Below are positions 31,469 through 43,763 of a DNA stretch of 56,442 nt, piece by piece (positions within the stretch are counted from its first letter, which is position 1; each line of letters opens with the position of its first letter). The notes beneath the pieces are model-generated. The model was not told the DNA's origin. It did not search any database and saw only the letters and a program-made list of their open reading frames with translations. Both the position numbers and the translations under genes were made by a program. Origin of the DNA: Patescibacteria group bacterium (lineage in GTDB: Bacteria; Patescibacteriota; Minisyncoccia; RBG-13-40-8-A); NCBI GenBank assembly GCA_018897295.1, contig JAHILA010000018.1:1-56442 (forward strand), read 5' to 3'.

Positions 31469-31945
31469 TTAGTACAAATTTTCTATTTCTTTCATCTCTT
31501 CAGGATTATAGCCTAAAAGACTTATTAGCTTTTTTTCAAACTTGTCCGCCAAAGTTTTAATGGAGGCAGAGTCTGCGCAATTTAAATCCTTAAATGTTCC
31601 CAAAACCAATTTCCAGATATCTTCATCCCTTTCTTCTCCGACAATCGCCTCATTGATTAAATCTGCCAGTTTTTTGGCAATTTTTATTTTCTCCAAATCT
31701 TTTTTGATATTTAAAAATTGATCAATCAAAACCGCGTCTTTTAAAATTAAAAAATTCTTGCCTTCAACAAGAATCATCTGCACATACGTAATAACTTCAA
31801 TAGAGTATCTTAATTTACTTTCTAATCTTTTCACGCCTTTGGCGAAAATATTAATCTTTCCCAATTTTTCGCTATAAATGGTCAAAAGCCGGTCAACCTC
31901 ATTGGAATCAACTGATTTCAATATAATCGCCTCGGTTTTTATCAT
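31469..31945 (-). CDS. recO: DNA repair protein RecO (short form)
   Basis: 158 aa. N-terminal OB-fold pattern MIKTEAIILKSVDSNEVDRLLTIYSEKLGKINIFAKGVKR. Shorter than the typical about 240 aa. Confidence 0.6.
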   Translation of the reverse strand: MIKTEAIILKSVDSNEVDRLLTIYSEKLGKINIFAKGVKRLESKLRYSIEVITYVQMILVEGKNFLILKDAVLIDQFLNIKKDLEKIKIAKKLADLINEAIVGEERDEDIWKLVLGTFKDLNCADSASIKTLADKFEKKLISLLGYNPEEMKEIENLY

Positions 31946-32876
31946 GCTTAAAATTCTTTAATAATTTAATCTTTAACTTGTGCCCGCTACAATGACTCAA
32001 AACTCCTAAATATGATTGAATGTTTTTGTTATTTATCCTTTCAAACATTCTTTTCTTGGTTTTGGTGCGTAAAACTCTATAATACGGTAAAGTTACATAT
32101 CCTAAAAAATCAATTCCCTGACTATATTTCCTTATAATAATCTTATCAGGATAGAAGCATAAATTCAATTGATCATTTAAGAATTGGTTTATTGGATTTA
32201 TTAGTTTCTGTAGCTTATCCTTATTTTTGTCTAAAATTACGAAGTCATCTGTATAACGGAGGTAATGTTTAATTTTTAATTTGTGTTTTACAAATTGGTC
32301 TAACTTATTTAAATAAATATTGGCAAAATACTGGCTTGTAAGATTGCCGAGAGGAATGCCCTTATTTGTTTCTGAATTAAAACTAAAAATTATTTCTTTA
32401 ATCAACCGTAAAATATCATTATCCTTTATTCTCTCCTTTAAAATTTTAATTAAGACATCGTGGTCAACGCTGTCAAAAAACTTCTTAATATCGCACTTTA
32501 AACAATAGAAATTAAATTTATTGTTTTGGCTCTGTTTTAATGAAAATGTTCTTAACCTATTAACTGCTTTGTGTGTTCCTTTATTGATTCGGCAGGAATA
32601 AGAGTCATAAATAAATATTTTGTCGTAAATATTGTTTAGATGTTTTGAGATTAAATGATGAATAATTCTATCTCGGACTTTGGCTTTGTGGATATAACGT
32701 GGTTTCGGATCATTAATACGAAATGAAGTGTATCCGGAATGTTTGTAGGTTTTATTCTTTAATTCTTGGTATAATTGGAATATATTGTCTTCCAAATTAA
32801 ATTCAAATTCCAAAACATCTTTTCTTTTTGATTTTCCTTTTTTGAATTCTCGCCAAGACGAAAACAAATTTTCCAA
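31908..32876 (-). CDS. diversity-generating retroelement reverse transcriptase (true N-terminus probably further upstream, to 32971 via the homopolymer)
   Basis: 322 aa from a TTG. Motif 4 IPLGNLTSQYFANIYL (DGR-type GxxxSQ), YTDDFVIL catalytic box, DPKPRYIHKAKVRDRIIHH. The frame stays open upstream and encodes a Brt-like IKRHNFEKINNYGDLITLENLF. Confidence 0.9.
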   Translation of the reverse strand: MENLFSSWREFKKGKSKRKDVLEFEFNLEDNIFQLYQELKNKTYKHSGYTSFRINDPKPRYIHKAKVRDRIIHHLISKHLNNIYDKIFIYDSYSCRINKGTHKAVNRLRTFSLKQSQNNKFNFYCLKCDIKKFFDSVDHDVLIKILKERIKDNDILRLIKEIIFSFNSETNKGIPLGNLTSQYFANIYLNKLDQFVKHKLKIKHYLRYTDDFVILDKNKDKLQKLINPINQFLNDQLNLCFYPDKIIIRKYSQGIDFLGYVTLPYYRVLRTKTKKRMFERINNKNIQSYLGVLSHCSGHKLKIKLLKNFKHDKNRGDYIEIS

Positions 32877-32928
32877 AGTTATTAAATCGCCGTAATTATT
32901 AATTTTTTCAAAATTATGTCTTTTAATG

Positions 32929-32939
32929 CCCCCCCCCCC
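32929..32939. repeat. C11 (G11 on minus strand) homopolymer tract
   Basis: Counted directly: gcc + ccccccccc. Lies between the ATG and the conserved body of both the RT (minus) and the Avd-like ORF (plus). Confidence 0.95.
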
Positions 32940-32941
32940 AA

Positions 32942-33286
32942 CGGGTTGAAAACGAAGTTTCTATCGTTCATAAAATTATTGAGTTCTATAAATTATTCCA
33001 CGAATACTTAAAGTCATTTCCAAGATCTGAGAAATATACATTAGGAGAAAAAATCGAAAATCTAATTATAGAATTACTGATAACTACATTGAAAAGTGCT
33101 TACTCACATAAGGACAAAAAATTGCCATTATTGAATAAAATTGATAACAGAATTTTTATTTAAAAAACACTTATTCGATTAGCGAAAGAGGTTAAGTCAT
33201 TAGATATTAAAAAATATATTGCTTTAGAGAAAAAACTGCAAGAAATCGGAAAAATGCTAGGCGGTTGGATTAAATCAATAAAATAA
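32942..33286 (+). pseudogene. avd: Avd-like four-helix-bundle accessory protein (23S rRNA IVS protein family). As assembled it has no in-frame start and an internal TAA.
   Basis: Manual translation: RVENEVSIVHKIIEFYKLFHEYLKSFPRSEKYTLGEKIENLIIELLITTLKSAYSHKDKKLPLLNKIDNRIFI*KTLIRLAKEVKSLDIKKYIALEKKLQEIGKMLGGWIKSIK*. The FPxxEKYxLG and IGKMLGGWI motifs are typical. The stop is at 33161-33163. Confidence 0.6.
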
Positions 33287-33294
33287 ACTAAACG

Positions 33295-33321
33295 AAAGAG
33301 CATCTAATAATGATGCTCTTT
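33295..33321. terminator. hairpin aaagagcatc-taataat-gatgctcttt: terminator of the avd-like gene on +, and a structured element just 3' of TR on the minus transcript
   Basis: Perfect 10-bp stem followed by a T-run on + strand. Sits 18 nt from the TR 3' boundary. Confidence 0.45.
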
Positions 33322-33338
33322 TTCGCGCGGAGAGACTT

Positions 33339-33464
33339 CTGGAGAAAACCAGACGCCGAACCATAGTTGGCATTAGTGTTGCTCACCCAATTCGTGTTGA
33401 ACTTGACCTTGCCATCGTTAAAGTTGAAATACGGCGCGCGGCTGAAATCGCCATCAGCATCAGG
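33339..33464 (-). repeat. DGR template repeat (TR)
   Basis: Gap-free 126-nt alignment to VR1 and VR2. The TR is A-rich on the coding-sense strand (7 Asn codons in YFNFNDGKVKFNTNWVSNTNANY). Confidence 0.85.
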
Positions 33465-33601
33465 TTTATTGTTTTTGTCCGTCTGTTTCACTGGAAATCG
33501 AGATTGGCTTTATATACCAAAATTCTCTCAATCCTGCATTTTATTCGACGGCACCCTAATAATATTAGAGACCCACGCCAGACAAAAACAAGCAGTATCT
33601 C

Positions 33602-33610
33602 ATTATAGCA
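33602..33610 (-). promoter_or_regulatory. extended -10 promoter (TGCTATAAT) about 130 nt upstream of TR, candidate TR-RNA/RT promoter
   Basis: Minus strand reads agtgTGcTATAATg. No strong -35. Confidence 0.35.
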
Positions 33611-33703
33611 CACTCTTGGAAGTCGTGACCACCAAGATTCTGGCTATTTATAGTTTATCAAATTCTTATTTTTAAAACAATATTTATTTTTATAAATTAA
33701 AAT

Positions 33704-33731
33704 GCGGGATGCCTCCATTGAGACATCCCGC
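33704..33731 (-). terminator. conserved GC-rich hairpin 22 nt downstream of the target-1 stop codon (28 nt beyond the VR1 3' boundary): terminator and/or DGR target-recognition cruciform
   Basis: gcgggatg...catcccgc stem. The same element with a 12-bp perfect stem sits at the equivalent position after VR2. Confidence 0.6.
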
Positions 33732-33753
33732 CAAGAATTCAAGAATTCCAGAG

Positions 33754-34620
33754 TTACTGCTGGAGAAAACCAGACGCCGAACCATAGTGGGCACTAGCGC
33801 TGCCCACCCAATCCGTGCCGAACCTGACCTCGCCACCGCTAAAGCTGAAACACGGCGCGCGGCTGAAATCGCCATCAGCAGCAGGCGCGTATTCGTCACC
33901 AGCGCAGTCGATCCAAGGATCGTCGTAGTGCTGGAGACGTTCGGGATGCGTGAGAATCATGCACCCGATTTTGAATGCGCCGAGTCCGAACTCATTGCCT
34001 GTAAAGACCTCACGGGCCCGACGAACGGAGCGACCCCGGTGACGAAGACCGAACTGCGAGGCAACGACCAGAATGTCGAAGCCCGTTTGTTGGTTACCTA
34101 ACATCTGGAGCTTCTTGGCCGTGCGCTCATGCTGCCGGAGATACTGCTCTCCGATCCTGCCTTCGCGGTGGTTGTAGAAGTTGCCGTCGCGCTGCTTCTT
34201 GATCAGATCGAGCACCTTCTGTACTGCTTCGTTGTAGGTCTTGGCGACCGACTGCCAACGCGGGATGGCGAACCATCCTTCGGCATTCGGCGGAAGCGGC
34301 TGCTGTGCCAACTTCTCATCGGCGAATCCGGCGCCTGGGAAGAGTTGCCGCAGGATGTTGGTCTGCTCCGTGATTCCTTTCGGCTTGTAGCCCGACAGGT
34401 ATCCGTAGCTGGACTTTACTTCCTCGTCGGCGAACTGGTTGCTCAGCGAGTGCTTCTTGATGGAAACGGTAATGTCGGCTTGGAATTCGTCGCCGTTCTC
34501 GATGAGTTTCTGAATACCGTCCTTGTCGAGGAGACCCTCGGCAATTGCGCGATCCACAGCATCTTCCGCGAACCGCTTAACCTGTTTCTGTTGACCCGAC
34601 GTGATCGATTGTGTCGTCAT
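33754..34620 (-). CDS. DGR target (variable) protein 1, GC-rich, no signal peptide, C-terminal VR
   Basis: 288 aa. C-terminus GDFSRAPCFSFSGGEVRFGTDWVGSASAHYGSASGFLQQ. RBS aaaggag upstream. Paralog of 42888-43763. Confidence 0.85.
   Translation of the reverse strand: MTTQSITSGQQKQVKRFAEDAVDRAIAEGLLDKDGIQKLIENGDEFQADITVSIKKHSLSNQFADEEVKSSYGYLSGYKPKGITEQTNILRQLFPGAGFADEKLAQQPLPPNAEGWFAIPRWQSVAKTYNEAVQKVLDLIKKQRDGNFYNHREGRIGEQYLRQHERTAKKLQMLGNQQTGFDILVVASQFGLRHRGRSVRRAREVFTGNEFGLGAFKIGCMILTHPERLQHYDDPWIDCAGDEYAPAADGDFSRAPCFSFSGGEVRFGTDWVGSASAHYGSASGFLQQ
33760..33885 (-). repeat. DGR variable repeat 1 (VR1)
   Basis: 15 mismatches to TR, all at TR adenines (T on + strand). The 3' 28 nt (33760-33787) are identical to TR (IMH-like). 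Confidence 0.85.
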
Positions 34621-34709
34621 CGTCTTTCTCCTTTTTCCGTTTGGCTTTGTAATTTAAGGGGTTTTCCCCACCTGCGGAATATATAAATAAAAAATTCTTG
34701 TTTTCTTGT

Positions 34710-42887: not shown

Positions 42888-43763
42888 TTACTGCTGGAGA
42901 AAACCAGACGCCGAACCATAGCGGGCATTAGTGAGGCCCACCCAACGCGTGCCGAACAAGACCCCGCCAACGCGGAAGCGGAAGCACGGCGCGTCGTGGA
43001 AATCGCCAGCAGCATCAGGCGCATACTCGTTGCCAGCGCAGTCGATCCATAGGTCGTCATAAGAGACGAACCGTTCAGGATGTGTCAGAAGCATGCAACC
43101 TGCCTTGAATGCGCCGAGTCCGAACTCGTTGGCCATAAAGACCTCGTGAGTCCGACGAACGGAGCGACCCCGATGGCGAAAACCGAACTGAGCGGCGACG
43201 ACCAGAATGTCGAAGCCCGTCTGTTGGTCACCCAACATCTGGAGCTTCTTGGCCGTGCGCTCGTGCTGGCGGAGATACGTCTCTCCGATTTCGCCTCCGC
43301 GGTAGTTGTAGAAGTTGCCCTTGCGCTGCCTCTTGATCAGGTCGAGCACCTTCTGAACCGCCTCGTTGTAGGTCTTGGCAACCGACTGCCAACGCGGGAT
43401 GGCGAACCATCCTTCGGCGCCATCGGGGAGCTCAGACAAGCTCTTGGCGAACTCGAGGGTCTGACTCGGGTTGAGATTGAAAATCTTGGCGATTGCCTTG
43501 ATCTGATCCGCGATCGGCTTTGGCCCCTTGTACTCCTTCGGGTACGTGCGGTTGGAACAAACTTCCTCGTCGGCGAACTGGTTGGACGCGGACAGCTCAG
43601 TGATGAGCTTCGCGATCCCGTCCTGCAGTTCACCACCGCGCTCGTTGAGTCGCTGTGCGCGCGCATCGTCGAGCTTGGACTTGTTGTAGACGGCCTCGAA
43701 GAGACCGACTGCGTGGAGACCTTTCGGGTCTCGGCTGGTGATCAATGTTTTTAACATCGTCAT
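42888..43763 (-). CDS. DGR target (variable) protein 2, GC-rich paralog of 33754-34620
   Basis: 291 aa. C-terminal half is highly similar to target 1 (AEGWFAIPRWQSVAKTYNEAVQKVLDLIK...FDILVVA.QFG.RHRGRSVRR). Ends GDFHDAPCFRFRVGGVLFGTRWVGLTNARYGSASGFLQQ. Confidence 0.85.
   Translation of the reverse strand: MTMLKTLITSRDPKGLHAVGLFEAVYNKSKLDDARAQRLNERGGELQDGIAKLITELSASNQFADEEVCSNRTYPKEYKGPKPIADQIKAIAKIFNLNPSQTLEFAKSLSELPDGAEGWFAIPRWQSVAKTYNEAVQKVLDLIKRQRKGNFYNYRGGEIGETYLRQHERTAKKLQMLGDQQTGFDILVVAAQFGFRHRGRSVRRTHEVFMANEFGLGAFKAGCMLLTHPERFVSYDDLWIDCAGNEYAPDAAGDFHDAPCFRFRVGGVLFGTRWVGLTNARYGSASGFLQQ
42894..43019 (-). repeat. DGR variable repeat 2 (VR2), remote
   Basis: Gap-free 126-nt alignment to TR. 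By my count there are 26 mismatches: 21 at TR adenines and 5 non-adenine differences clustered in the 5' (coding-sense) third. Confidence 0.8.

Follow-up and report, generated by a model that had tools for sequence, protein, structure and literature searches.

A pure G:C homopolymer in the antisense overlap between the 5' coding ends of the reverse transcriptase (RT) and Avd genes of a Patescibacteria DGR is probably part of a conserved, contingency-type switch, in which slippage at a repeat would gate both DGR proteins together. The case for this reading is built on the anatomy of the junction, its conservation among relatives, the length polymorphism of the tract, the coupling of the two reading frames, and the contrast with relatives whose junctions are free of repeats. 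With slightly less confidence, the same comparison suggests that most Patescibacteria DGRs carry a stochastic and heritable master switch over targeted hypermutation, made of either a G:C run or a dinucleotide repeat.

The window, by which we mean the whole 56,442-base stretch of DNA analyzed here, contains a bona fide DGR, with an RT, an Avd and adenine-specific TR/VR pairs. The template repeat (TR) is located at 33335–33464 on the minus strand, VR1 at 33756–33885 (minus) at the 3' end of a target gene (33754–34620, minus), and VR2 at 42890–43019 (minus) at the 3' end of a second target gene (42888–43763, minus); each VR stops 2 nt short of its ORF's end coordinate. Every mismatch between VR1 and the TR falls at a TR adenine (16/16), and this clean, adenine-only pattern indicates that the element was active in the past. 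For VR2 the corresponding count is 22 of 27, and its five non-adenine mismatches (two G>A, two T>C and one C>G; VR1 has none) may mean that the second target is drifting or is no longer serviced by the DGR. The whole element lies between recO and ileS in a setting of housekeeping genes; it is thus chromosomal, with no obvious mobile element around it. The RT gene and recO share 38 nt (31908–31945), the 3' end of the former lying over the start of the latter. No second RT or Avd that could act in trans was found in the window.

Several other features surround these genes. The target genes form an island of 57–59% G+C (33650–34700 and 42888–43763) in a window of 36% G+C, in which the RT and Avd are at ∼28%. 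Among 72 related loci, 30 contain some 600-nt window that exceeds the locus median by at least 15 G+C points, and the G+C peak is found, for most of the 72, where a target gene and TR would be expected, ∼1.0–1.4 kb upstream of the RT start. Directly after VR1 and the target stop codon is a GC-rich hairpin with a 12-bp stem and a 4-nt loop (33704–33731, minus), which resembles the hairpin reported downstream of the VR in other DGRs. A further hairpin (33295–33321) separates the TR from the Avd 3' end, and upstream of the TR there is a promoter-like site of the TG-extended type (33602–33631, minus). Between VR1 and the TR (33581–33644, minus) there is a weak match to the Rfam RT-7 RNA (RF03028) that scores 27.8 bits where the gathering score is 116.8 (E about 1e-3) and is probably not meaningful.

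The RT (31908–32971, minus) is matched by RVT_1 (E = 5.9e-24), and its best solved relative is the Bordetella bRT (PDB 8ub7, E = 1.4e-40). Its translation contains GIPLGNLTSQYFAN, with the GNLTSQ motif, and RYTDDF, so that both the (I/L)GxxxSQ and the YxDD signatures of the DGR clade are present. The body of the gene stays in frame between the tract and the stop at 31908, and the called ORF starts only at a TTG at 32876. Above the tract the same frame stays open to a TAG at 32961–32963 and offers no ATG, GTG or TTG. An ATG at 32969–32971 (MNDRNF...) and a TTG at 32939–32941, the G of which is the first base of the run, are both in another frame that meets a stop at 32882–32884. These two codons are likely the authentic RT starts, both out of frame at the assembled length of the tract, given that RT homologues begin MNDRNF..GGG or (L/M)GGG. 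An earlier note on this DNA, made from the letters alone, had described the start-less open frame and the ATG in the adjacent one just as they are found here, and had called the N-terminus Brt-like; that N-terminus indeed aligns with the start of bRT (MGKRHRN...DQITTWENLL with GGGGIKRHNF...GDLITLENLF).

The Avd accessory gene (32916–33286, plus) is broken twice, in its start frame and by a nonsense codon. When conceptually repaired, it matches bAvd (PF22296) at E = 8e-20 and NF033474 at 80.3 bits, against a cut-off of 80. Its frame is open from 32927, and, as the note had also observed, the ATG at 32916 (MSFNAPPP) stands in a different one; homologue N-termini such as MTSNAPPP and MTTNAPPS support this ATG as the Avd start. 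A second ATG (32926–32928) adjoins the tract.

The tract itself reads C11 on the plus strand and G11 on the minus strand (32929–32939) and, as the earlier note reported in proposing a slippage switch, it lies where the 5' ends of the RT and Avd overlap in antisense. It is the sole run of at least seven C or G in the window. A word of nine C is expected 0.15 times per shuffle, and the three overlapping matches seen here were reached in 2 of 100 shuffles, so that the occurrence of the run in this window is by itself only moderately unlikely. In-silico variants of n = 8–14 units resolve the locus into three states. At n = 0 mod 3 the RT and Avd are both in frame, and at n = 9 or 12 each is joined to a start, the Avd to the ATG at 32916. 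At n = 1 mod 3 the Avd alone is in frame, the ATG at 32926–32928 serving it at n = 10 or 13. At n = 2 mod 3, the class of the assembled 11, neither gene has a usable start, and this is the sole class in which every start is out of frame. The claim that 12 C:G pairs would fuse both frames therefore stands, with the addition that 9 does the same, whereas the claim that a tract of 10 brings early stops to both genes is wrong for the Avd. A change of one unit toggles ORFs between in-frame and truncated, both in these variants and across the frame table for the family.

No Shine-Dalgarno sequence was visible by eye 5' of 32971, 32941, 32916 or 32926, and a promoter scan gave matches no commoner than in shuffled sequence. 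At or near the tract no Rfam family was found, the two far-sub-threshold matches both lying elsewhere.

Restoring the frames would not be enough to reactivate this copy. An in-frame TAA (33161–33163, plus), corresponding to a TTA-to-TAA change, stands where the intact homologues compared keep a Leu (FILKTLIRLAKE), encoded by TTA, TTG, CTT or CTA in the four homologues examined at the DNA level. It is Avd codon 83 in the numbering of the 12-C repaired protein, and with it the Avd stops after 78–82 aa whatever the length of the tract, short of its most conserved helix, EIGKMLGGW; a change in the tract alone therefore cannot bring the window copy back. The suggestion that one extra base repairs both genes thus holds for the fusion of the frames and fails for the Avd product. 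With an all-off length class and an Avd nonsense codon, the window copy appears from its sequence to be currently inactive, and the intact, translatable RT and Avd of an active DGR are absent from it. The public annotation of the identical NCBI contig has no Avd called.

Comparison with its nearest relatives places the origin of this frame break in some doubt. At L016, where the Avd is 88% identical, the tract also has n = 11, yet both genes are in frame; the window differs from it by a 1-nt indel immediately outside the tract (AATCCCGTT vs AACCCGTT), and the frame problem of the window need not, therefore, have originated within the tract. A search for the same strain through RecO and target-protein look-ups recovered only GCA_018895295.1, which is 100% identical over 12.5 kb and also G11 and may derive from the same reads as the source of the window, together with a 3.3-kb Logan contig that stops ∼190 nt before the tract. 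The next closest RT (85% identical, L122) has n = 11 with the Avd out of frame and the RT open from an ATG far upstream.

It is possible to read the window genome as a case of plain decay, in which inactivating mutations of an ordinary kind, without a regulatory role, produced both the frame break and the TAA, and inactivated DGRs with intact TR/VR pairs are known (PMC3521204). The nonsense codon at a conserved Leu makes decay an adequate local explanation, to which the 1-nt difference from L016 outside the tract and the five VR2 mismatches away from adenines also lend themselves, and as a description of the window copy alone it is compatible with the switch model. We nevertheless regard it as an improbable account of the junction, for it leaves the conservation of the repeat, its polymorphism and the coupling of the frames across the family unexplained, and VR1 is still perfectly adenine-specific.

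That conservation emerges from a set of 38 loci found in metagenomes and 80 taken from species-representative Patescibacteria genomes (at least 599 genome hits exist), drawn from Wildermuth-, Yanofsky-, Moran-, Zambryski-, Vogel-, Doudna-, Komeili- and Staskawiczbacteria, Paceibacterota and other lineages. An Avd match is present in about 110 of 119 loci and, with only two exceptions, is divergent from the RT and head to head with it. Most related loci have a pure G run on the RT strand at this junction, mostly of 8–13 nt, and so the comparison of orthologous loci that had been proposed alongside the original observation reveals a junction homopolymer in most relatives, with varying length. 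The enrichment is strongly local: G/C runs of at least eight number 84 in the 160-nt junction windows (19 kb) and 5 in the other 701 kb of the 119 loci. Among 73 dereplicated loci, tracts of 9 (27 loci) and 10 (26) are the commonest, followed by 11 (9), 8 (6), 12 (2), 13 (2) and 7 (1). The first G completes a TTG or GTG in 28 of the 73, and an ATG adjoins the run on the Avd side in 8. RT homologues in the protein database often start with LGGG, MGGG or VGGG, or with a short extension followed by GGG(G); others, like that of the window, are called only from 'MITLENLF'.

There is reason to think that selection at the junction acts on mutability. In the window, GGG accounts for 14.6% of the Gly codons and CCC for 12% of those for Pro, and as both are minority codons the purity of the run is not due to codon usage. 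Selection at the protein level for Gly3 or Pro3 was considered and rejected, because the frames and lengths vary and the N-termini of tract-less proteins are unrelated. Tract-less RTs begin instead with MNQWDVNVVNSHNN... (P0040, L039) or MNNRNLESVGCVVNN... (L040, L092), neither containing GGG. Among the 25 loci without a G run, five (L050, L064, L094, L114 and L116) have a dinucleotide repeat at the junction, either (GT)n, (CT)n or (GA)n, and at the 20 loci with repeat-free junctions the two ATG starts are a few bases apart or overlapping and the N-termini are unlike GGG/PPP. Three loci with no junction tract (L046, L058 and L073) have (GA)n within the RT coding sequence, just before GIPIGNLTSQ. 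Taken together, these patterns suggest that it is the mutability of the sequence, not the motif, that selection keeps.

Repeats and disruptions elsewhere in these loci deserve mention. Among relatives without the junction tract, runs of (GA)6-11 occur at L046:3578, L058:919, L073:3530 and L084:4019, within the RT (RERERE) or at its 3' end, and may be alternative switch sites. L081 has three G10-11 runs (2324, 3404 and 5253), one at the Avd/RT junction and the others 15 nt upstream of a signal-peptide-like ORF and 12 nt upstream of a second Avd-like ORF. At L067:2626 and L119:2612 the G run is in the 3' tail of the Avd, where frame matters little. These three loci suggest that G runs are used more widely around DGR genes in such genomes. 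At L095 (1895–1960), which has no junction repeat, the RT 5' end is disrupted (MSVVNHMFD* vs MRVINHMFDSII in L112), a case of ordinary inactivation without a repeat. Lastly, L123 (5211–6260) and L124 (4294–5343) contain a second RVT_1 RT gene of 349 aa, ∼1.1 kb downstream of the DGR RT and following a TatD-like gene, as part of the locus of a 76%-identical relative, P0004.

Variation in length was also observed between loci that are otherwise the same. In six groups of loci from different metagenomes, the 400-nt flanks on each side are 100% identical, and in three of the six the tract length differs (10 vs 9, 9, 9; 9 vs 8; and 8 vs 9). Over the 1.3–4.2 kb alignments of these polymorphic groups the tract is the sole indel. 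An interrupted short tract (ggaGGGGGGag), by comparison, shows no difference among four samples, and both genes are in frame there. The junction tract accordingly displays the features by which contingency loci are recognized, namely a repeat in 5' coding sequence in excess of chance and polymorphism of repeat number among near-clonal relatives. At L018, L019 and L020, where n = 9 and both genes are in frame, clustered and mostly A/G substitutions distinguish the samples upstream of the RT, and we read these as candidate VR diversification at positions not assigned to a VR.

A survey of 67 tract loci, in which an ATG, GTG or TTG in frame at or upstream of the tract was scored for each length class, gave frames close to those expected of random lengths. 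The RT is in frame at 29 of 67 loci (31.3 expected), the Avd at 32 (31.3 expected), both at 19 (20.7 expected) and neither at 25 (25.0 expected). Such random on/off states fit fast-switching loci without steady selection for the on state; taken alone, they would equally fit a frame that is irrelevant, as with RNA polymerase slippage at any length. They also bear on the proposal that the assembled length is a homopolymer miscall or assembly artefact and that the true length is 12 or 9, with the 5' ends intact. Homopolymers of at least ten are error-prone, and the sole other assembly, GCA_018895295.1, possibly comes from the same reads. In-frame lengths are no commoner than chance over the 67 loci, however, and since ∼2/3 of assemblies would need errors, miscalling cannot be the general explanation. 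Also against it, the tract is the only indel in the alignments of the three polymorphic strain pairs, and the TAA is a substitution and not a problem of homopolymer length. For the window, then, a miscall is very improbable, and of the two explanations offered in the earlier note, miscall or switch, the family-wide comparison favors the switch.

That frame does matter is argued by two further observations. The first is that the length classes that put the RT in frame tend to be those that put the Avd in frame: their overlap is 41 vs 28.7 expected, and the RT-on and Avd-on sets are identical in 17 vs 8 expected (p<=5e-5). The coupling persists after dereplication (p<0.002 at 80% RT identity, p about 0.016 at 70%), with the reservation that the loci share ancestry, which weakens the statistic. 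A by-product of one stop-poor antisense register was considered as its source and rejected, as all registers contain 0.036–0.071 stops per codon. The second observation is that canonical in-frame starts for both genes are present in 19 of 20 repeat-free relatives vs 15 of 59 tract loci (Fisher p = 3e-8); the method evidently detects starts where there are any, and their absence is specific to loci with the repeat. At 14 of the 67 loci no tract length puts an upstream RT start in frame, and since in most of these the RT starts downstream of the tract, only the Avd can be gated there. At some loci a CTG alone is available next to the tract.

These observations suggest the following mechanism. 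The tract would be a hypermutable simple-sequence repeat in the short stretch where the 5' coding ends of the RT and Avd overlap in antisense, the RT starting at an NTG that either includes the first G or comes before it, and encoding GGG, and the Avd starting at an ATG 0–25 nt before the C run and encoding PPP. Slipped-strand mispairing in replication would then gain or lose one unit, and because the tract is in the overlap of both 5' coding ends, one change in length would shift both frames together. In Bordetella, cDNA synthesis by bRT-Avd requires both the RT and the Avd. If the same is true here, the element would be on only where both are in frame, and adenine-directed hypermutation of the target genes would be toggled stochastically, heritably and, we infer, reversibly, through an effect on protein expression. 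Slippage at the RNA level may add leakiness.

The main rival places slippage in expression instead of in DNA. RNA polymerase or the ribosome would slip on the run and produce a minority of in-frame product at any length, and the tract would be kept for low, noisy levels of RT and Avd. Length classes that are random relative to frame agree with this, and runs of 9–11 suffice for transcriptional realignment, as in dnaX, IS elements and endosymbiont poly-A tracts. Frameshifted genes in endosymbionts, IS elements and dnaX are known to be rescued when transcription slips at a long homopolymer, and the junction resembles such cases in having a long homopolymer at a frame junction, so that genes that seem broken may still be expressed. 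Those cases, however, involve A/T runs and a fixed genomic offset, whereas the DGR tract is a G:C run of variable length, and the conserved offset characteristic of programmed transcriptional slippage is absent, the lengths being random and many loci directly in frame. In addition, dinucleotide repeats, including the (GA)n in the RT, are classic substrates of DNA slippage and not typical sites of RNA slippage, the DNA length itself differs between otherwise identical strains, and coupling of the RT and Avd frames would be needless if frame were irrelevant. We therefore consider expression slippage on its own unlikely, albeit less so than decay, and note that DNA and RNA slippage can coexist.

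It might also be supposed that the G run acts in cis, as a DNA or RNA element whose function does not depend on frame, such as a boundary or pause of the TR transcript or a protein-binding site. The run is kept even where the RT start is 29 nt downstream (L024-L026, L035), and G runs also occur in 5' leaders at L081 and, at L067 and L119, in the 3' end of the Avd. A binding site or pause would, on the other hand, be hard to reconcile with a length that is not conserved (7–13) and with a sequence for which GT, GA or CT repeats can stand in, or which can be missing altogether alongside normal ATG starts; the lack of an Rfam family match and the frame coupling, which it leaves unexplained, make this reading highly doubtful.

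A slippage switch of the proposed kind would have several precedents. In the poly-G/C contingency genes of Campylobacter jejuni, Neisseria and Haemophilus, phase variation results from slipped-strand mispairing within coding sequence (PMC8355987, PMC5084427). The DGR tract is like these in being a G:C homopolymer of 8–13 nt near a 5' coding end, pure despite codon degeneracy, which varies in length among near-identical strains and is found in nature at both on and off lengths. It differs from them in that its position in an antisense overlap shifts two divergent genes at once, that it gates hypermutation enzymes in place of surface structures, and that its hosts are uncultivated Patescibacteria, in which the switching is putative. 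The hifA/hifB fimbrial switch of Haemophilus influenzae consists of (TA)n in overlapping divergent promoters and likewise co-regulates two divergent genes through one repeat. There the repeat acts on promoter spacing and transcription, whereas the DGR repeat is within both coding sequences and would act through translational frame. Phasevarions (phase-variable DNA methyltransferases) and mutL repeats are repeat-switched trans-acting enzymes or mutators, and share with the DGR tract the character of a second-order switch, in which a repeat controls a trans-acting enzyme that alters many phenotypes or the supply of mutations. Their effects on methylation or mutation are genome-wide, while the DGR directs diversification to sites in one or two target proteins.

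The DGR of Bordetella phage BPP-1 shares with these elements a homologous RT, an Avd partner forming a four-helix bundle, adenine-specific TR/VR pairs and a VR at the target 3' end. In BPP-1, avd, TR and brt are on one strand and there is no repeat; in the Patescibacteria clade, which corresponds to clade 2 of Roux et al. 2021 (PMC8144416), the avd gene has the opposite orientation and stands head to head with the RT, with the repeat in the overlap.

Repeat-based phase variation and DGRs are each well known, and as far as we have found the link between them at the level of the RT and Avd appears to be new. To our knowledge the main paper on DGRs in this bacterial group is that of Paul and colleagues, in which a prior mention is possible. 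Full-text searches of the literature outside that paper (Paul et al. 2017, PMC5436926) brought up nothing that ties either of these DGR proteins to phase variation, homopolymers or other repeats.

If the proposed switch is real, it would be, as far as we have found, the first described on/off control of a DGR, and it would join contingency loci and retroelement hypermutation, the two best-known strategies of localized variation, in a two-tier system. Many RTs and Avds of Patescibacteria DGRs bear annotations as truncated, missing or pseudogenes, which the switch would explain, and it may also help to explain why many DGRs seem inactive in metagenome surveys; DGR detection pipelines should accordingly tolerate frame breaks at the Avd/RT junction. 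In metagenome time series, the frequency of tract alleles should follow VR diversification. Phase variation, which has been studied almost entirely in pathogens, would be systematic in ultra-small uncultivated bacteria. A mutable switch would then sit over a mutator, such that only some of the cells would diversify their targets at any one time while the others retain the adapted variant.
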